From Escherichia phage JMPW2, in the sequence record NC_041873.1: a stretch of DNA of 50,298 nt; one strand, written 5' to 3'. Under the pieces are notes generated by a model. That model ran no database searches. It saw only the letters and a list, made by a program, of their open reading frames with translations, and was not told where the DNA came from. A program made the position numbers and the translations under genes. Positions 5,320 through 47,272 of this stretch are shown piece after piece. The first letter of the stretch is position 1. Every line of letters begins with the position of its first letter.

Positions 5320-5352
5320 AACCTATCAAGGGGAATGCGCTATGATTCCCCT
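5303..5352 (+). promoter_or_regulatory. palindromic box plus stem-loop
   Basis: aatagcacgaattgctaaaac; hairpin aggggaat...attcccct with TATGAT. Confidence 0.6.
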
Positions 5353-7493: not shown

Positions 7494-7542
7494 CACGAAT
7501 TGCTAAAACGTCGATGGGGTGATTTGATATAGTTACCTCATC
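7489..7542 (+). promoter_or_regulatory. palindromic box plus stem-loop
   Basis: aatagcacgaattgctaaaac; hairpin gatggggt...acctcatc with TGaTATAGT. Confidence 0.6.
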
Positions 7543-7565
7543 GACAACGAAGAGAGAAAATCGAA

Positions 7566-9301: not shown

Positions 9302-9319
9302 ATGCCTGCAATATGGTAA

Positions 9320-9339
9320 AATAGCACTAAATGTTAAAC
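9320..9339 (+). promoter_or_regulatory. palindromic box variant upstream of terminase small subunit
   Basis: aatagcactaaatgttaaac. Confidence 0.45.
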
Positions 9340-9354
9340 AAAGAGGATGGATTT

Positions 9355-16009: not shown

Positions 16010-16029
16010 CATAAAAACACTTTGACGCT

Positions 16030-16046
16030 TTAACAAAAAGTGCTAT
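16030..16046 (-). promoter_or_regulatory. palindromic box upstream of major capsid gene
   Basis: ttaacaaaaagtgctat followed by hairpin with CATAAT loop. Confidence 0.5.
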
Positions 16047-16053
16047 TATTGAA

Positions 16054-30780: not shown

Positions 30781-31190
30781 TTTTTTTCGTGTAACGGGTG
30801 TCTATTTTTGTAACTGGAGATGGTGTTACAAAATCTACCCAATCCGAACGCAGGTAGATATGATAAAAACTCTATATAATATATATAGATAGATAATATT
30901 TAATTTTAGCTTTATATATATAATTATTGTTGTGTAACAGTTGTCTATCGTGTAACTGGTGATTTGATTGATTCGTCAAATTTCTATCATATATGTTCAA
31001 AATTTAATCAATATGGATTCTACTTGTAGCTATCCCTGTATTTCTAAGAAAAAGCGGTTACAAGTATTACACAGTAGACATCACATAAAAATAGACTTAA
31101 GCCATTGATTCCGTTAATGCTGGTTGTAACTTGAGCGATATAGACACGCTATTACACACCAATTACATGTATCCGATTGACTAAACGCTG
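30781..31190. repeat. AT-rich iteron-like cluster (GTGTAAC / TGTCTAT / GTAACTGG motifs)
   Basis: cGTGTAACgggTGTCTATttttGTAACTGG at ~30790 and GTGTAACagtTGTCTATcGTGTAACTGG at ~30935, with inverted copies near 31050 and 31130 and (TA)n tracts. Confidence 0.6.
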
Positions 31191-31235
31191 TTAATGGCTA
31201 TAATGGATTCATCGTAAACGAGGGAGATAAACGCA

Positions 31236-35192: not shown

Positions 35193-35218
35193 CAATAAAA
35201 AACCGCCCGAAGGCGGTT
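35193..35218 (-). terminator. rho-independent terminator after primase
   Basis: aaccgcccgaaggcggtt hairpin preceded by A run on + strand. Confidence 0.6.
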
Positions 35219-36152
35219 ATAGTAGATCACTTGCTGAGAATAACTTAGCTTGCATTCCTGAGCGGTATCCTCCCTGATTCGGGATGATTATTTTTAATTG
35301 TCTGTCGTCTGCCATGTATAAAGTTTCTTTATCAGATGGTTCGCACGCCACCCTTACCTCCCGATCTCCCTTGTATCTGTACGCAACCATTTCTAGATTT
35401 TCAGGAGTGAAGCAGGCCCATACCTCTTGCTTTGTGTGAAATGCAATATGCTGAGCATCAATCCAATTAAGGCATAAGTAGATCGCTTTTTCAGTTTTAC
35501 CAGTCACGGCAACCGAGCAACTTGTGTATTTCTTTGCATAAAATGACTCCCTACCCTCCTCATCAATAATCAAAATATTGCAAAACTCTTCATCAATACC
35601 GTCCTCGTGTACAAGTTGACATGGTATGGTGTGAAATACACTCTCGCCGCCATCCTCTCGACGTTTTACGCCAACGTCGAATGATTCAGTAGGTAGCGAC
35701 TCAAACATGCTTAGAGGTGTGTTTATGCGCTTCTCTGTGCGCTCCATAACTTTCATCACTGCCTCGTGTTCTGCCATCATAACGTTGACGCCAGCTACCG
35801 GAGTTCTTCGCGCTTTTTTGTTGGCCTTGACAATGTATTCCTGCGGAACCTTGCCGAGAAATCTTCCCAGGATATTTATACATTCGCTGTACGGCATACC
35901 AGTTAATTTCATCAACCAACCGACTCCAGAGTCGTTACCGCATGAGTTGCAGATCGCACCGCCGTCGCCCGGAGTGTTAAGGTTATCAGTCCAGCGAAAG
36001 CGGTCCTTACCCCCGCAGTTAGGGCAAGGTTGGTGTTTCTTATTAAAAACATCATTCGGCAATCCGCAGATTGATTGGAAAGCCTCGCGCCATAACCCCT
36101 TCATGTACGGCAAAACGTCCTCTTTCTGAAACATCATAAATTCTTCGTTCAC
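35217..36152 (-). CDS. DNA primase (zinc-ribbon type)
   Basis: CPNCGG...CNSCG zinc-binding pairs in N-terminal region; track start is GTG, ATG at 36137 also possible. Confidence 0.55.
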   Translation of the reverse strand: MNEEFMMFQKEDVLPYMKGLWREAFQSICGLPNDVFNKKHQPCPNCGGKDRFRWTDNLNTPGDGGAICNSCGNDSGVGWLMKLTGMPYSECINILGRFLGKVPQEYIVKANKKARRTPVAGVNVMMAEHEAVMKVMERTEKRINTPLSMFESLPTESFDVGVKRREDGGESVFHTIPCQLVHEDGIDEEFCNILIIDEEGRESFYAKKYTSCSVAVTGKTEKAIYLCLNWIDAQHIAFHTKQEVWACFTPENLEMVAYRYKGDREVRVACEPSDKETLYMADDRQLKIIIPNQGGYRSGMQAKLFSASDLL

Positions 36153-36164
36153 TTCCAGATCTCC

Positions 36165-36205
36165 AAAATAAAAAACGCGTAGAAGGATGTTAACCCGCTA
36201 CGCGT
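36165..36205 (-). terminator. rho-independent terminator after HTH gene
   Basis: acgcgtag...ctacgcgt stem with A-rich run on + strand. Confidence 0.5.
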
Positions 36206-36210
36206 CGTTT

Positions 36211-36230
36211 GTTTTAACTAAAAATGCTAT
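36211..36230 (-). promoter_or_regulatory. palindromic box variant
   Basis: gttttaactaaaaatgctat (reverse orientation). Confidence 0.45.
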
Positions 36231-36666
36231 TGGTCGTCCCGATATCTTCCTTCTTCACGACGCGCATAAATTTCTTGTTCTTGCATCGCTTCTCAAGGCA
36301 CTTGCCGTTACCGTCAAACTTCAGGTCGAATCGCAACCATGCGGCACGAAATCCTTTACACCCCTGTCGTCGGTAAGCACGATGCGCAGCTTCAGCACCT
36401 TGCCACGAAATCATGTTGCGTTCTTTCCAGCCTTGCACCGTCTGATTGCTAACCTTTAGAGCTTTTGCGCAGGCCGCAGGGCCACCATAATATTCGATAA
36501 GCGCATCAAGTCGCGCTCGCAATCCGGCGCGTGTTTCTTCTTTATGAATATAGAAGCCGCAGCGCTGTCGAGGCTTTTTATCTTTACCGCGTCGTGTTCC
36601 GTTGTTACCATTGATGTGACGTTTATCGATTTCACCAGTTGACTCTGCGATACGTTGAATACTCAT
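36214..36666 (-). CDS. HTH DNA-binding protein (putative regulator)
   Basis: XRE-like helix-turn-helix AKALKVSNQTVQGWKERN; basic N-terminus. Confidence 0.5.
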   Translation of the reverse strand: MSIQRIAESTGEIDKRHINGNNGTRRGKDKKPRQRCGFYIHKEETRAGLRARLDALIEYYGGPAACAKALKVSNQTVQGWKERNMISWQGAEAAHRAYRRQGCKGFRAAWLRFDLKFDGNGKCLEKRCKNKKFMRVVKKEDIGTTNSIFS

Positions 36667-36677
36667 CTTAATTCTCC

Positions 36678-36734
36678 TATAGCACTTTTTGCTAAAAACG
36701 TTTACTGTATGCCGTGTATTATAGCGTAAACGTT
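36678..36734 (+). promoter_or_regulatory. palindromic box plus stem-loop in divergent region upstream of helicase
   Basis: tatagcactttttgctaaaaac; hairpin aacgtttac...gtaaacgtt with TATTATAG loop. Confidence 0.55.
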
Positions 36735-36765
36735 ACAACGATTCAAAGGATTAATAGACGTGACA

Positions 36766-38778
36766 ATGAACATTAAAAAGCAGATTGCATTACTTGGCGA
36801 GGACTATATAAAGCGAACTCAGGAGCGATTCACTGTCGGTGAGGTTGTTCCTTATCCGTACCAGGTTGTTGCTTATGCTGAGATCGCGAAACGCCTATCA
36901 AATTACGAGCATCCATTCTTTGTTAAAGCGTCAGTATCTGCGGGTAAGACCATCATTTTTGCTATGGTTGCAAAGCAGTGTCAGAAAATGGGCTTAAAAA
37001 TGCTCGTTCTGGCTCGCCAGGGTGAGATTGTCGATCAGGATAGCGAGGAGATTGACAACTTTGGGGTAACTAACTCCATATTCTCAGCCTCATTAGGTAT
37101 TAAGTCCTGCTATTTTCCTATCGTGGTAGGCTCAGAGGGTACTGTTGCAAATGGCCTCGACAATGAGCTTGCTGATTTCGTCCCGCATGTAATTGGGATC
37201 GACGAATGTCACCAGGTGGATTGGGAAGACCTTGCGCAAGCCATTGAGGGCAAGGAAACAATGGAACAAATGAGGGGCGAGAAGGGAAAAATCATCATGG
37301 ATGGAGATATTCCCCTGATTGGTAATGATGGAAAACCTTTGCTTGGGACTAAGCGCAGTCAGTACACGATCGTAATCATGGAAATGATGCGGCGCTGTAA
37401 AAAGGTTCACGGTCACGATCTCAGAATATTTGGTATGACTGGATCTGAATTTCGTGGCGTAGTTCCTATTCTGGTAGAGAATCCGAAAGCATTGGGATTC
37501 TGGCGTGAGCGAGTAACTGATATCGACACAAACTATCTGATTGAGTTCGGTTCTGTTGTGCCGACAATATTCGGTTCAACAGACGGAGTTCATTACGATC
37601 TGGATAAGTTCAAGGCGTCGAGCGAGGACGGAGTGCAGGACTTTACAGAGAAAGACATGAAGGCTATGGAAGATGAGATCCTTCATGATAAATCACTGAC
37701 TCAGCGAATCATGCAAATGGTCGCCAAAAAGGCCGAAGAGCGTAACGCTGTTCTTATTACATGTGCTGGGGTGCGTCACTGCAAAGAGGCGGCGGCGGCG
37801 CTTCCGCCAGGAAGCACCTATGCAATCATCACTGGCGATACTGACACCAAAACGCGCAAGAAGATTCTTGATGATGTAAGGGCAGGAAAGATTAAATATA
37901 CCTTTCAGGTCATGGCGCTCACGACTGGCGTTAACGTTCCAAATTGGGATTTCAGCGTAATACTTCGCAAGATAGGGTCGCTCACGCTGTTGATTCAACT
38001 TTTGGGTAGGGGTATGCGTCTGCTTAAACCCTGGCAGGTTGCTGATGGAATGGTTAAGCAGGACCATCTGGTATGGGATTTCGCAGGTACGATGGATGAG
38101 TTGGGTCAGCTTTATTTCGATCCGATACTTGAGCAAGCACAATTCCAAAAGCGCTTTGAAAACGGCAAAGATCCGAAAACATGTCCGAAATGCGGTTGCG
38201 TAAATAGCTTCTATGCTCGACGATGCGTTAATGTCATTGATGGTGAACGTTGCGATCATTTCTGGACTTCTCAGATTTGTGAGGACCAGGTTGACGAGCG
38301 CACCGGAAAAATCCTTGTTAAAGGATGCGGTGCAGAGAATGACGTTGTGGCCCGAGTCTGTCGTTGTTGTGATGTTTCGCTTGTCGATCCTAACCTGAAG
38401 TTATCCGGTAAGGCGTACACTAAGAATGACTGGTATGAAGTAAAGAATTTTGAGGTTACGCTAACCAAAAACCAGAAAGGCATAATATACAAATACACTC
38501 TTATTAACGATGATGGTGATGAGTTCAAGGCGTATGAAAAATTCTTCCCCGAGTCTGACTCTAAGATTTGCGGTACGATATGGAAAACTAAAGGTGTATT
38601 GCCACACGTATCGGATCCTAAAATGCGCCGATACTTTATCGGAATGAAGAACGCCATCAAGATTTTGCAATACTCACATCATATTGCTCACCCGGTGCGC
38701 GTAACTCATCGTCGCAACCAGAAGAAAGAAGATATTATCTCACGAAAAGACTTTGGTATGGAGGATATCCCGGAATGA
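36766..38778 (+). CDS. SF2 DExH-box helicase with C-terminal zinc ribbon
   Basis: Walker A SVSAGKT, DECH box (IGIDECHQV), C-terminal CPKCGC...C..C. Confidence 0.8.
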   Translation: MNIKKQIALLGEDYIKRTQERFTVGEVVPYPYQVVAYAEIAKRLSNYEHPFFVKASVSAGKTIIFAMVAKQCQKMGLKMLVLARQGEIVDQDSEEIDNFGVTNSIFSASLGIKSCYFPIVVGSEGTVANGLDNELADFVPHVIGIDECHQVDWEDLAQAIEGKETMEQMRGEKGKIIMDGDIPLIGNDGKPLLGTKRSQYTIVIMEMMRRCKKVHGHDLRIFGMTGSEFRGVVPILVENPKALGFWRERVTDIDTNYLIEFGSVVPTIFGSTDGVHYDLDKFKASSEDGVQDFTEKDMKAMEDEILHDKSLTQRIMQMVAKKAEERNAVLITCAGVRHCKEAAAALPPGSTYAIITGDTDTKTRKKILDDVRAGKIKYTFQVMALTTGVNVPNWDFSVILRKIGSLTLLIQLLGRGMRLLKPWQVADGMVKQDHLVWDFAGTMDELGQLYFDPILEQAQFQKRFENGKDPKTCPKCGCVNSFYARRCVNVIDGERCDHFWTSQICEDQVDERTGKILVKGCGAENDVVARVCRCCDVSLVDPNLKLSGKAYTKNDWYEVKNFEVTLTKNQKGIIYKYTLINDDGDEFKAYEKFFPESDSKICGTIWKTKGVLPHVSDPKMRRYFIGMKNAIKILQYSHHIAHPVRVTHRRNQKKEDIISRKDFGMEDIPE

Positions 38779-41056: not shown

Positions 41057-42190
41057 ATGTCACAAGCTAAAATCACTACCGAGCAACTTATCGAAGAGCG
41101 CATGAGCGGCCTGACACTTCGCGAGATCGCGGAAAAGTACGGTATGCACATTCGCACTGTCGAGGCGCGTCACGCAAAACTTGCAAAAGAAGGCCACTTC
41201 CACGGCAACGAGCATGTTGCTAAGATGGTTCCGGAAGGCTTCATGGTAAAAGGCACGTCAACCATGATTGACGCGGAAGGTAACGAGAAGATTCGTTGGG
41301 TTAAGACATCAGTTGATAATGAGCGCCTTGAGGTTCTAATGGAAAAAGCGCGTGAAGCATTCTGTTCAGAGTTGCCTAAGGCTATTCCATCTGAATCACC
41401 TGACGTTAGTTTTGATGAAGACACGCTTGCGATGTATCCAGTTTTTGATTTGCACATTGGTGCTCTTGCTCACAAACATGAGTGCGGCGAAAACTACGAC
41501 ACAGCGACAGCAGAGAAGGTTATGAATGGGTTCTTTGACTACGCTGTAGATAAGGCGCCAAACTCAAAGAATGCCGTATTGGTATTGGGTGGCGATTTCC
41601 TACATTACGACTCTTTGGAGTCTAAGACTCCAGCGTCAGGCCATTACTTAGATTCTGACAGTCGTTACGCTAAGCTTGTTTATGTCGCAATCCGATCAGT
41701 ACGACGCGCAGTCTCTCGAATGCTGGAGAAGCACCAAGTTATTGATATTAAAGCAATAAGTGGGAATCACGACGAATCAGGGATGGTTTGGTTGCGCGCT
41801 GCGCTTGCTGCATTTTATGAAGATGAGCCGCGCGTAAATGTTGATGTTAGCCCTGCCGCAATGATGATGACCAGCTTTGGTAAGACCCTTATTGGATACA
41901 CTCACGGGCATCAAATGCGAAAAGCAGATACTCGACTAAGTGTTATGGCAACTGATTTTCGTAAGTTGTTTGGTCAAAGTGATTACGTTTACACGCATAG
42001 CGGTCACTGGCACAGTCAAAAGATTACAGAAACAAACTTGGGTATTGATGAGGTTCATGGTCAGCTTGGAAGTCCTGACGCATACTCTGCCAATGGCGGT
42101 TGGAGGTCTCAGCGTCAAGCTGCTGTGATTGTCTATCACAAGGAATTTGGTGAGGTTGGACGATTCATTTGTCGACCTGAAATGTTCTAA
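41057..42190 (+). CDS. HTH domain fused to calcineurin-like metallophosphoesterase
   Basis: N-terminal LTLREIAEKYGMHIRTVEAR; phosphoesterase motifs DLHIG, GGDFLH, GNHDE, HSGHWH. Confidence 0.7.
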   Translation: MSQAKITTEQLIEERMSGLTLREIAEKYGMHIRTVEARHAKLAKEGHFHGNEHVAKMVPEGFMVKGTSTMIDAEGNEKIRWVKTSVDNERLEVLMEKAREAFCSELPKAIPSESPDVSFDEDTLAMYPVFDLHIGALAHKHECGENYDTATAEKVMNGFFDYAVDKAPNSKNAVLVLGGDFLHYDSLESKTPASGHYLDSDSRYAKLVYVAIRSVRRAVSRMLEKHQVIDIKAISGNHDESGMVWLRAALAAFYEDEPRVNVDVSPAAMMMTSFGKTLIGYTHGHQMRKADTRLSVMATDFRKLFGQSDYVYTHSGHWHSQKITETNLGIDEVHGQLGSPDAYSANGGWRSQRQAAVIVYHKEFGEVGRFICRPEMF

Positions 42191-44339: not shown

Positions 44340-44747
44340 TCAAATTCTTCTTTCGTAAGCTGGAGCCTTGCGCACAATTCGACGTTCCGATCTATCAATG
44401 TTTCTACGTTCGCCAAACAAGTCTTCATCACTCATTTCTCCAATGTGCATCATTTCCCACGTATATCGATTGTTGTAGCCATCAATACACATCAGCTTCA
44501 TCATTACCGGGCGCTTGATCTTTCCCTTGCACCAGTAAAATCCACCCTTGCAATCAAGATAACCCTCAGTCACGCAGCGTGCGCAAAACTCCTTAGACAG
44601 CGCGCTTGTAAATTCACGGCGAGTCATTCCGGCGGCCTTAGCAAATCGCTCACTTTCCTTGTGGGCGTATATAAATTTCGCTATGTGCTGTCGAGTGTAT
44701 TTGTCGTAACCTTCGCAGAACCTGAACAGATCTAAAAGAAGAAGCAT
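44340..44747 (-). CDS. hypothetical protein
   Basis: Track ORF; ends 112 nt before terminator, with a second open frame (44228..44431) continuing to it. Confidence 0.45.
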   Translation of the reverse strand: MLLLLDLFRFCEGYDKYTRQHIAKFIYAHKESERFAKAAGMTRREFTSALSKEFCARCVTEGYLDCKGGFYWCKGKIKRPVMMKLMCIDGYNNRYTWEMMHIGEMSDEDLFGERRNIDRSERRIVRKAPAYERRI

Positions 44748-44751
44748 ATTA

Positions 44752-46320
44752 TTAACCCATCAGTCGAGGATTGATGAAAACAATATCATCAATCCGGCAA
44801 GTGTAGTTCATCTCTTCGAGCGTGATCAGCAGGCTGTCGATTCGCTCAGCTACTTTTTGTTGACCGTTGAACGGCGTAACGTTACGGCACTTTGCAACAA
44901 TGCTATGAATAGGTGCGCGACCTTTGTTCTTCTTTGCGATCTCAGTGATAACATCAATCAGCTTACGAGATTCAGCCTCATCACCAGCATACCCGGCGGC
45001 GCTGGCAGACGACAGATAGGTTCTGGAAAGCTCATTGAAAATCATGATCGCTTCCTGCATTGTTTCAAGGTCAATCTCACGGTTGGAACGGTTCGGTGAT
45101 TCACCATCCCAGTTCTTGATTGTGTGAAGAACTGAAGCAATGCGCAAAGCGTGCTTATCGAACTTGCCGAGATGACCGCGTAGCATTGAGTGAGAGTATT
45201 TGCCCCCGGCTGCGAAATCCGGCTCCATAGCCTGGCGAGCAAGGTTTAATTCACGCATAGCATTACGGCTTACAGAGAGAACAACGTTGTCCTCCTTCAT
45301 AATGTTGTGCACAAGTCGATAATATTTACTCACCAATCCTCGATCGACTTCCTTATACAGTGCATCACCATTTTCATCGCAAAGAATACGAGTGCCTAAA
45401 AGAGGTTCCTCGCGAACCAATAGGAAACGCTCAGATACACCGATACCGCGCTGGCCTGCGTCCATGATACCCTTGATTGTTTCATCCTGCGCAATGACGC
45501 AGATCGAACCGACCGGGCAAAGAGATAAGTTATTGTCCTGATTTGAACGCGCAACCTCCATATGGTTTTTATCCCACGCCTTGAGGATAAGCTCGCTGTT
45601 TGATTTCTTATCAGAACCGCCATAAGTCAGGCCAAGCAATGTATTTATTGCCGTTGCCTCATCAGAGATTACGGAAAAGTGGCCTTGAACAGCAGCTACT
45701 TTCGCAAGACCTTCCGGTGTAGGATCTGATACCGCGAAAACAATATCAGCCATCTTCTTGATCTTCTCTTCCAGTTTTTCCTTGTCCTCGTACAGCGCCG
45801 CCGTCGTGTTACCCTTCGGATCGTTTTTGATTTCCTTCTCGATCTGACGTAGCTGACTGGTTAAACGGATACGTTCCTTTTTGCGCTCTTCATTCAGTCT
45901 CTGAATCTCTGCGCGCATAGGTGTAATCGCCGCTGAGTTAATCGCGGATTTACCTGTTGATGGTGGCTGGCTAATCACCATATAAAGAGCGGTCGGTTGT
46001 TCTTCTCCGTGATATTGCACCCAAAACTTCCCTAGCATCGCGGCTGAGATGCACCCAATGAAATGAGCGTACGCAGACGAAACAGGAAACTGTACAGACT
46101 CAGCTTTTGCTTTTGCATATTCGAATACCAGGTTATCGCCACCTAACGAAATCAGCGGGAACTTATCGTTTCCACTGTTGATATCGATCGGGTCTTGCCA
46201 AAACGAAACTGAATCCCCGTAGCTGTTTTCACGAATTGCGATCGCCACCGGATTAACTCCAGTGCTATTTGCGATCTCAATAATCTGTTGGTAATTCAGT
46301 TTTGGCTTAATATTAAACAT
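44752..46320 (-). CDS. P-loop NTPase (DUF3987-like, replication-associated)
   Basis: Walker A-like PPSTGKS; start at internal ATG (MFNIKP) with SD aaggag. Confidence 0.55.
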   Translation of the reverse strand: MFNIKPKLNYQQIIEIANSTGVNPVAIAIRENSYGDSVSFWQDPIDINSGNDKFPLISLGGDNLVFEYAKAKAESVQFPVSSAYAHFIGCISAAMLGKFWVQYHGEEQPTALYMVISQPPSTGKSAINSAAITPMRAEIQRLNEERKKERIRLTSQLRQIEKEIKNDPKGNTTAALYEDKEKLEEKIKKMADIVFAVSDPTPEGLAKVAAVQGHFSVISDEATAINTLLGLTYGGSDKKSNSELILKAWDKNHMEVARSNQDNNLSLCPVGSICVIAQDETIKGIMDAGQRGIGVSERFLLVREEPLLGTRILCDENGDALYKEVDRGLVSKYYRLVHNIMKEDNVVLSVSRNAMRELNLARQAMEPDFAAGGKYSHSMLRGHLGKFDKHALRIASVLHTIKNWDGESPNRSNREIDLETMQEAIMIFNELSRTYLSSASAAGYAGDEAESRKLIDVITEIAKKNKGRAPIHSIVAKCRNVTPFNGQQKVAERIDSLLITLEEMNYTCRIDDIVFINPRLMG

Positions 46321-46859
46321 CACAATAAACTCCTTAGTTGACGGCGTGAATGATACACCGTCAATGGTACACGCGTTTTGCAAAAAGTGCTATTCGATCC
46401 GTGATTCTCATGAAAACCGTATAGCCTTTCCGCTTCCTTCCTTGCTTTAGCCGCTGCATCCAGCGTCATGAAGGTCCCTAAGTGTTTTGTCTTTTTATTT
46501 ATGGTTATGTTTGCCGTGTATCTATTTGTTTTTTTATTCCAATACACTCCCATAACTCCTGTGTTTGATGACACTACTCCCTTGTTTCTTAGGTTGTCTT
46601 GCCTAGTTACTAGCCTGAGATTCTCAATTCTGTTATCGTCTCTTTCATGGTTTATGTGGTCTACATCCATTCCTTCTGGTATGTTTCCGTAGTGTATTTT
46701 CCATACTATTCGATGGGCGTATTCAAATACACCTCCTGGAAAACATATTGACCGATAACCTTTTTTATTAACAGTTCCGGCAAGTAGATTTCGTCTTCTT
46801 CCGATTCTCCACTCTTTCCAGTACAGTCTCCCGCTAACGTATTTCAGTTCATCTTTCAT
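46320..46859 (-). CDS. HNH homing endonuclease with AP2-like domain
   Basis: DVDHINHERDDNRIENLRLVTRQDN plus SNTGVMGVYWNKKTNRYTA; third paralog. Confidence 0.75.
   Translation of the reverse strand: MKDELKYVSGRLYWKEWRIGRRRNLLAGTVNKKGYRSICFPGGVFEYAHRIVWKIHYGNIPEGMDVDHINHERDDNRIENLRLVTRQDNLRNKGVVSSNTGVMGVYWNKKTNRYTANITINKKTKHLGTFMTLDAAAKARKEAERLYGFHENHGSNSTFCKTRVPLTVYHSRRQLRSLL
46339..46393 (-). promoter_or_regulatory. palindromic box plus stem-loop (minus strand)
   Basis: Minus-strand atagcactttttgcaaaac, hairpin gacggtg...cgccgtc with TGTATCAT, SD taaggag. Confidence 0.55.
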
Positions 46860-47272
46860 AAGTATTTACTCTCAAAGGTTGTGCCGTCTGCGATACTAAA
46901 ACCAACCTCTTCGCGGAATAAGGTCCAGCGGCAACCGTCCTCATCAAAGATGTAACCAGCTACGCCTCCAAGAGCGCGACCGCTTTCTACCTGGTAACGC
47001 TTTCCAACCTTGAATGATTTTTTCATTGGGTTGCGATGGTCAAGTCCGGTGCACTTGAGCGTCTTTGTTTTCAACTCGGTGAACTTCGCGAAGAAGATTT
47101 CATCAGATCCGTGAATATGTAATTCATCATGCTTTTCAAGTTTTAAATACTTCCCGCATTTTAACTTTACTTCACGAGTATCATCATAGCGCTCACGACC
47201 TTTATACAGATTGTTTACTTCGAATCCTGTGATTTTGTCTGCTGAAGTGCATTTAAGTTTAATGGTTTTCAT
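46856..47272 (-). CDS. small-beta-domain family protein (two repeats)
   Basis: KLKCTSADKITGFEVNNLYKG and KTLKCTGLDHRNPMKKSFKVGKRYQV repeats. Confidence 0.5.
   Translation of the reverse strand: MKTIKLKCTSADKITGFEVNNLYKGRERYDDTREVKLKCGKYLKLEKHDELHIHGSDEIFFAKFTELKTKTLKCTGLDHRNPMKKSFKVGKRYQVESGRALGGVAGYIFDEDGCRWTLFREEVGFSIADGTTFESKYL

Follow-up and report, generated by a model that had tools for sequence, protein, structure and literature searches.

Which protein reads the 21-nucleotide (nt) repeat that recurs along the genomes of T1-like phages? Phage T1 belongs to the classical set of seven T phages; its relatives, the T1-like phages, often turn up as contaminants and are candidates for therapy. 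The question is raised here by a small gene at positions 36214-36666 of Escherichia phage JMPW2 (sequence record NC_041873.1), whose 50,298 nt were analysed as a whole and are hereafter called the window. An earlier note on this DNA had put the gene forward as a candidate regulator of a regulon of palindromic boxes. The gene product, hereafter called the regulator, is predicted to be an early Cro-type regulator of T1-like phages, and the reading favoured is that it binds the repeat, hereafter called the box; a probability of roughly 0.35 is given to this reading. In its favour are a Cro-type helix-turn-helix (HTH) domain, a promoter of the gene's own, boxes flanking the gene and a distribution matching that of the box. 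To this extent the earlier proposal holds up; it is weakened by HTH helices that vary while the box stays identical, and by two other proteins that co-occur with the box equally well.

The 21-nt direct repeat was reported for phages TLS, T1, Rtp and Rogue1 by German, Kropinski, Misra and colleagues in 2024 (PMC11447400). Stoperators, enhancer sites or UP elements were proposed there as its nature, the protein that binds it was left unnamed, and its function was listed as an open question (PMC11447400). A literature search on the motif and on T1 transcription found the repeat discussed in PMC11447400 only. The gene and its general annotation as a regulator are already public, the annotation being by similarity only; the new part is the proposed link between the regulator and the 21-nt repeat, which is absent from the literature searched. 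ALTERNATIVES were also examined, namely host factors, the HTH of a phosphoesterase, an RNA hairpin, a replication origin and known RNA families.

A Cro-type protein encoded between the primase and helicase genes

The open reading frame (ORF) of the regulator matches PHROG 2856 with an expectation value (E) of 1e-76. Its counterparts are ORF23/CPTT1_056 of T1 (AAP49976.1), gp55 of Escherichia phage vB_EcoS_SH2 (SH2) and gp57 of TLS; the orthologue is named 'transcriptional regulator' in RefSeq, and the curated T1 record gives an HHpred similarity of CPTT1_056 to the P22 C2 repressor. Over the 3.6 kb around the gene the window is 100% identical to SH2 and about 93.5% identical to T1. Both phages are of the genus Tunavirus, family Drexlerviridae, to which the window also belongs, and nucleotide identity in the region of the regulator is 93-100% within Tunavirus. 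Outside these 3.6 kb the window is a mosaic relative of SH2. The regulator is homologous over its full length to the Drexlerviridae ORF23 group and shares its primase-gene-helicase synteny, the gene being placed between those for primase and helicase in all genera.

Family searches returned HTH matches that lie below their cut-offs. These were P22_Cro (E 4e-5, 23.6 bits against a cut-off of 30.2) and YdaS (E 9e-4, 19.5 bits against a cut-off of 30) in Pfam, and the carph-isopro HTH domain in NCBIfam (E 1.4e-8, 34.8 bits, just under the cut-off of 38). A profile of the regulator family built from 20 homologues matched Cro proteins in the PDB at E 8e-4 to 0.016, with the common motif G..S.LA..LGVS.Q.V..W..RG. 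In the AlphaFold2 model, with a mean predicted local distance difference test score (pLDDT) of 81, residues 36-140 form a confident domain with pLDDT >90 over 40-130; helices were predicted at 43-60, 63-70, 74-83 and 88-100, and residues 1-35 are disordered. The top matches of this model in Foldseek were the all-alpha Cro structures 3bd1, 6on0 and 2hin, with template-modelling scores, TM(target), of 0.65-0.74, probabilities of 0.98-1.0 and root-mean-square deviations of 2.0-2.7 A. The predicted fold is a five-helix, all-alpha one with a helix 2-turn-helix 3 arrangement, and judged by model and profile the regulator is a genuine Cro/cI-fold HTH protein. The peptide AKALKVSNQTVQGWKERN corresponds to residues 67-84.

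The earlier note had described an XRE-like HTH with a basic N-terminus, encoded divergently from the helicase gene. The HTH was confirmed by the Cro fold found with AlphaFold2 and Foldseek, with which the sub-threshold family matches and the profile matches to Cro proteins in the PDB agree; 10 of residues 1-35 are K or R, and the helicase gene starts at 36760 on the opposite strand.

The box and its putative promoters

The most frequent long words of the window belong to one motif, aaATAGCACnnnTTGnTAAAAC, and this is the published 21-nt repeat aaATAGCACnnnTTGnTAAAA. A position weight matrix (PWM) built from 15 copies scored 26 sites in the window at 10 bits or more, whereas shuffled sequence gave 0-2. 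The boxes have the orientation of the surrounding genes and cluster in the two arms, where the small early genes lie, and in the modules for replication and lysis. The description of the box as palindromic is right for a pseudo-dyad of 5+5 positions only, TAGCA-N5-TGYTA, which is embedded in an asymmetric motif of 18-21 nt. One arm of the inverted repeat next to the regulator gene, AACGTTTAC, was also considered as the box and rejected; it gave 18 matches against 11.7 expected, which is no enrichment, and the real repeat is ATAGCACnnnTTGnTAAAA. An Rfam scan of the whole window gave zero matches.

In 13 of the 21 strongest boxes a -10-like hexamer (TATAGT, TATGAT, TAGAAT, TATTAT and others) lies exactly 17 nt past the 23-mer that holds the box, and is followed by a conserved CATCGAAAC-type leader, a ribosome-binding site (RBS) and a start codon. 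These box promoters look -35-less because the usual -35 position holds AAAACN and the TTGYTA of the box is too distant from the -10. Taken as a -35 element, TTGYTA would stand 22 nt from the -10, and nothing -10-like is found 16-18 nt downstream of it. The dyad centre, at position 11 of the 23-mer, falls at about -42 from the transcription start as deduced from sequence, which is the geometry of a class-II-type activator site (near -41.5).

Of the 21 strongest box promoters, 13-14 have their -10 within a stable hairpin whose sequence is specific to the promoter (z-scores of -3.3 to -7.3). Examples are 1469-1500, 2490-2520, 5324-5352, 7511-7545, 47331-47300(-) and 46372-46338(-). The -10 lies in the loop or the 3' arm of such hairpins, several of which are annotated terminators. 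They look like modules in which terminator and promoter overlap, a feature absent from the description in the TLS paper. Transcripts that read through would form the whole hairpin, and transcripts started inside it would lack the 5' arm. A module of this kind would combine termination of the upstream unit with re-initiation, as in the 'transcripton' idea cited in PMC11447400.

The box might alternatively act as RNA. The regulator would then be an N-like antiterminator, whose Arg-rich arm binds a box hairpin in read-through transcripts and suppresses the next terminator. Such a hairpin would have a 5-bp stem and a 5-nt loop, the dimensions of lambda boxB; many boxes stand directly before a terminator-like hairpin, and where an invariant G faces either C or T, pairing (G-C or G-U) is preserved in the sense RNA alone. 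Against this, there were no compensatory double changes at the five stem pairs among 513 distinct sites, and single changes were left unpaired. The -10 hexamers at fixed distance argue for promoters, and the regulator has a DNA-binding fold. An antiterminator is considered very unlikely, and the box as an RNA hairpin was ruled out on the zero compensatory changes, the only alternation at a pair being G-C/G-T at one of them.

With a conserved host factor such as Lrp as reader, it would be understandable that phages of Escherichia, Klebsiella and Vibrio share an invariant box although the HTH of the phage protein varies. The consensus for Lrp obtained by systematic evolution of ligands by exponential enrichment (SELEX) is YAGHAWATTWTDCTR, and the outer half-sites of TAGCA-N5-TGCTA fit this consensus at 10/10 positions. 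The string YAGHAWATTWTDCTR is quoted in PMC5554404. The central five bases of the box fit poorly, however, and the box is conserved beyond its dyad. A screen of the Keio collection with the T1-like phage LL5, which belongs to the phage set analysed here, recovered only lipopolysaccharide genes, tolC, ppiB and secB, with neither lrp nor another regulator (PMC7229145), so that apparently no non-essential host regulator is required. The screen thereby suggests that lrp, crp, fis and ihf mutants support plating as usual. A host factor as the reader of the box is improbable on these grounds.

Layout of the regulator locus

The spacer between the regulator and helicase genes is 93 bp long and contains one box and an inverted repeat (Table 1). 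The box and stem-loop that had been noted between the two genes are both present there; the inverted repeat is weak as a hairpin (-7.0 kcal/mol, z-score -1.5), and its sequence is unconserved between genera. In the box on the helicase side the dyad is formed by TAGCA at 36680-84 and TGCTA at 36690-94, with its centre at 36687. At least 10 of 12 positions match in five intergenic promoters of the window, and the sigma70-type promoter of the regulator gene is one of them. It scores 9-11/12 in all 54 of 54 unique spacers (about eight genera), with TATAAT at a fixed position in 39 of them, and its counterpart in TLS, P57, is one of only three accepted sigma70-like intergenic promoters (PMC11447400 Table S1). 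The -10 of this promoter overlaps that of the helicase promoter on the other strand, and the box takes up about +13 to +35 of the regulator transcript. Equivalents of the second box, at the far end of the gene, were found in TLS (DR10/T57), Webervirus and others, and in all genera the gene has boxes at either end. The T1 record annotates a terminator at the place matching 36165..36215, and a -10-like TAACAT lies in the loop of this terminator, 17 nt past the second box.

Table 1. Predicted features of the regulator locus and its neighbours in the window
Feature	Coordinates	Strand	Description
Gene for Cro-type HTH protein (regulator)	36214..36666	-	150 amino acids (aa), ATG start, AGGAG RBS; orthologue of T1 ORF23/CPTT1_056 and TLS gp57
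N-terminal arm, codons 5-35	36562..36654	-	basic, predicted disordered; family-invariant motif (I/V)DKRxxNGNNG..R..K.R
HTH, codons 61-87	36406..36486	-	helix 2 = 63-70, recognition helix = 74-83, conserved RGMIS behind
Regulator RBS AGGAG	36674..36678	-	abuts box; position conserved
Box CTATAGCACTTTTTGCTAAAAAC	36677..36699	+	toward helicase gene; ~30 bits (PWM); same place in all genera
Inverted repeat AACGTTTAC-N20-GTAAACGTT	36697..36734		arms 36697-36705 / 36726-36734, enclosing both -10 hexamers
-10-like TATTAT of box-type helicase promoter	36717..36722	+	exactly 17 nt past 23-mer
Sigma70-type promoter of regulator	36718..36746	-	TTGAAT (36746-36741), 17 nt, TATAAT (36723-36718)
Second box CAATAGCATTTTTAGTTAAAACA	36210..36232	-	overlaps regulator stop codon, faces primase gene; 19.7 bits
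Terminator hairpin and T-run	36165..36215	-	after regulator gene; -16.9 kcal/mol, z-score -4.3
DNA primase gene	35217..36152	-	downstream of regulator
SF2 (superfamily 2) helicase gene	36760..38778	+	divergent from regulator

This layout suits a regulator that would be made first by host polymerase and would then redirect the polymerase to the box promoters. The best sigma70-type promoter of the window, TTGACT-16-TATAAT at 31177-31204(+), scores 11/12, has no box, lies upstream of a RecE-like exonuclease gene and corresponds to P51 of TLS. This promoter and that of the regulator probably mark genes that host polymerase reads unaided.

The regulator might instead be a purely local Cro-like autoregulator acting near the overlapping -10 hexamers, with the boxes read by RNA polymerase (through the C-terminal domain of its alpha subunit or through sigma) or by an unrecognised phage protein. 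This is a possible, tentative alternative. The recognition helix differs between genera, as if the operator were free to co-vary, and the spacer around the -10 differs between genera too. The 9-bp inverted repeat specific to the T1 genus has no exact copy elsewhere in intergenic DNA, and the remote relatives of the regulator are Cro/YdaS-type proteins of about 80 aa. On the other side, a search for a genus-specific operator in the spacer gave no consistent dyad, and the recurring CGTT (CGTT/AACG) there is the common leader of all box promoters. The arms of the T1 repeat are spaced by 29 bp, which is unusual for the site of an HTH dimer, and a local role leaves the invariant N-terminal arm unexplained. 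As for RNA polymerase as the reader, the invariant G/C positions of the box are unlike an UP element.

A role in replication was also weighed, with the protein as an accessory of the replication module (an origin binder or an organiser of helicase and primase) and not a transcription factor. The constant position of its gene beside those for primase and helicase would fit such a role, the invariant arm could be a protein-protein interface, and T1-like phages are without an identified initiator or origin (PMC11447400). No iterons or origin-like repeats were seen in or around the regulator gene, however; iterons were likewise not found in TLS (PMC11447400), and the fold is that of Cro-type transcription regulators. 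A replication accessory is considered unlikely.

Distribution of the protein and the box

The regulator was found with tblastn in 823 phage records, all of them T1-like Drexlerviridae and all at least 49% identical, and its gene is a core gene of this family. Among 1.84 billion cluster representatives searched with HMMER, only about 21 full-length regulator clusters were found. Remoter matches, to Cro/YdaS-type proteins of about 80 aa, cover the HTH domain only and align from about position 41 onward, so the N-terminal arm appears to be a lineage-specific addition. All 80 related IMG/VR loci hold the box at a similar density, and it has the same sequence in Vibrio phage Vc1, the most divergent member, and in every genus examined; because it is invariant even in Vc1, testing for co-variation of protein and box was uninformative. 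In a box scan of IMG/VR for carriers of the box beyond the family, among the matches listed, multi-copy contigs are T1-like in size and single matches are at chance level; the stretches listed lie outside the regulator locus. Among proteins restricted to box-carrying phages, the regulator alone has a robustly predicted HTH, and no DNA-binding domain was found with Pfam, PHROG and NCBIfam in the other small proteins of the right arm.

The earlier note had recognised only one other HTH-bearing protein in the window, and both proteins do have an HTH; the count of two is incomplete, as the T1 record flags CPTT1_070 and CPTT1_073 as weak candidates. The other protein, a phosphoesterase at 41057..42190(+) named 'DNA repair exonuclease', is of the SbcD/Mre11 type with intact DxH, GD, GNHD and GHxH motifs, and residues ~5-46 form an N-terminal HTH like that of sigma70 region 4 or LuxR. 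Were this HTH the reader of the box, its nearly invariant recognition helix (R33, V35, E36, R38) would be as expected for an invariant site, and the TTGYTA of the box resembles a -35 hexamer; the match to Sigma70_r4_2 was found in 11 of 13 homologues (best E 7e-7). The fusion, however, is present in 1615 phage records, Jerseyvirus and Dhillonvirus-type phages among them, about twice the 823 of the regulator, and Jerseyvirus ZCSE9 has the phosphoesterase without a box or a Cro-like protein. With its catalytic motifs intact the phosphoesterase looks like a working nuclease, and it could not start the cascade because its gene lies behind box promoters. Only a slim chance is given to this protein as the reader of the box.

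Weighing the regulator as reader of the box

Several observations weigh against the regulator as reader and activator of the box. Conservation by region was computed as column entropy over 55 unique regulator sequences. In helix 2 of the HTH (residues 63-70) 0 of 8 positions are invariant (mean entropy 1.54 bits), and in recognition helix 3 (residues 74-83) 1 of 10 is (1.40 bits), as compared with 9 of 31 in the N-terminal arm (residues 5-35; 0.81 bits). The best-kept parts of the protein are this disordered arm, part of helix 1 and the RGMIS that follows helix 3. At the recognition helix T1 has NQTVQGWKE, TLS NLKTVWGWKE, Webervirus SIQVVQQWRK, Rtp RQAVEEWFK and Vc1 VRLTNAYRL, and all five have the same box. 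The conservation of the recognition helix that is expected for an invariant site was not seen in these 55 sequences, and since the pattern is the opposite of the expected one, the reading of an invariant 18-bp site by helix 3 is disfavoured. The box, for its part, is conserved asymmetrically and beyond the dyad, at A3, C9, T13 and A19-A20.

Two boxes are not placed as those of activated promoters would be. The antisense box at 16048..16026(-) fills the whole 16-nt spacer of a good sigma70 promoter, TTGACG-16-TATTAT at 16022-16049(+), that precedes the gene for the major capsid protein; the matching place holds an antisense box in TLS (DR7) and in Vibrio phage Vc1 too. Occupancy of this box should repress the late capsid promoter. 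The box variant AAATAGCACTAAATGTTAAACAA at 9319-9341(+) abuts the RBS of terS and has no -10 at the usual spacing, so that it cannot act as the boxes of other box promoters do. With these two boxes a model of pure activation is incomplete, and the sign of regulation is not deducible from the layout.

Co-occurrence with the box, moreover, is not peculiar to the regulator. Two core proteins restricted to Drexlerviridae, one of 135 aa (834 records; CPTT1_070, window 44340-44747(-)) and one of 138 aa (822 records; CPTT1_073, 46856-47272(-)), co-occur with it equally. In the T1 record both are weak HTH candidates by HHpred (88% to RipR), and neither has a domain from Pfam, PHROGs or NCBIfam. The 135-aa protein follows a DUF3987 helicase and might be the DNA-binding partner of this helicase.

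Three readings are left by these data. Specificity may come from the invariant arm, which would be an unusual case; the HTH may have another target; or the regulator may not read the box at all. If box binding by the regulator is real, its specificity would lie largely in the invariant arm, helix 1 and RGMIS, because the recognition helix varies and the box does not. The following course of events is proposed for the favoured reading, that the regulator binds the box. Host RNA polymerase would transcribe the regulator gene unaided right after infection, and the protein made would bind the 21-nt boxes, probably as a dimer. At roughly 13-17 promoters with a good -10 and no -35 it would find TAGCA-N5-TGYTA about 42 bp upstream of the predicted start, and from this class-II-like position it would help RNA polymerase to initiate. 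At its own locus, occupancy of the box would switch the helicase promoter on and the regulator promoter off, since the box lies within the first part of the regulator transcript and the two -10 hexamers overlap.

A more specific form of this proposal would make the regulator the master activator of about 20 -35-less promoters set in terminator hairpins, with the box read mainly through the invariant arm and with shut-off of the regulator's own promoter through the overlapping -10 hexamers. This form is doubtful on present data. If true, it would answer the published question on the 21-nt repeats, and recognition of a site through an arm would be unusual for a protein of the Cro fold. If the regulator is the reader, one purified protein and a few DNA fragments would define the whole early and middle regulon, and from the variable recognition helix and the invariant site it is predicted that the box cannot be bound without the N-terminal arm. 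If it does not bind the box, the regulator would be an ordinary Cro-like autoregulator. The analysis argues against non-essential host factors and the nuclease with the sigma4-like HTH as readers of the box.

Other observations in the window

A second repeated word, ACCARTCAG, is present in 29 copies, which lie on both strands and in coding as well as non-coding sequence, against about 0.8 expected by our own estimate, made without shuffling. Examples are 1511, 3820, 5887, 19811, 32405, 47292(-) and 50157(-), and several copies lie just upstream of RBSs. The word ACCAATCAG and its complement also rank among the most frequent 9-mers in Vibrio phage Vc1. An ORF for an HNH endonuclease (179 aa) at 46320-46859(-) lies in the one stretch there, about 46395-46857, that is unaligned to SH2; T1 has an HNH gene at the corresponding place, which marks this as a mosaic or mobile insertion.

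Comparison with known systems

The regulator shares the five-helix HTH fold of P22 Cro, N15 Cro, Xfaso-1 Cro and the YdaS family, with target-normalised TM scores of 0.71-0.74 to all-alpha Cro structures and a probability of about 1.0. Compared with the all-alpha Cro proteins it is twice the size, with an invariant basic arm of 35 residues and a conserved C-terminal extension of about 50 residues. It also differs from Cro systems in coming from a virulent phage, without a repressor partner and without a three-operator switch.

A parallel in promoter geometry is offered by Mor/C of phage Mu and cII of lambda, where a small HTH protein acts on a dyad near -42/-43 at promoters without a -35; for the box promoters this geometry is predicted. 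In contrast to Mu Mor/C, one motif would here serve every early and middle module, at about 20 promoters, and its binding by the regulator is only proposed. The middle promoters of T4, which depend on MotA/AsiA, are likewise -35-less, with an upstream box (TGCTTtA, compared with TGCTAAA here) and a normal -10. The MotA box is centred at about -30, however, and the box here at about -42, and no homologue of MotA or AsiA was seen among the window proteins scanned.

A comparison with the stoperators of L5 gp71 was drawn by the authors of the TLS paper (PMC11447400). Like the boxes, these are many asymmetric sites, co-oriented with transcription and placed in short intergenic gaps. L5 is temperate, however, with gp71 as its immunity repressor, whereas the phage studied here is of the virulent T1 type, and the fixed distance of the boxes upstream of -10 hexamers fits promoters better than intragenic roadblocks. 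Small HTH regulators of phages that act at many sites near promoters are well known, as Mu Mor/C, lambda cII, L5 gp71 and T4 MotA show, and the regulator as proposed here would be of this kind.

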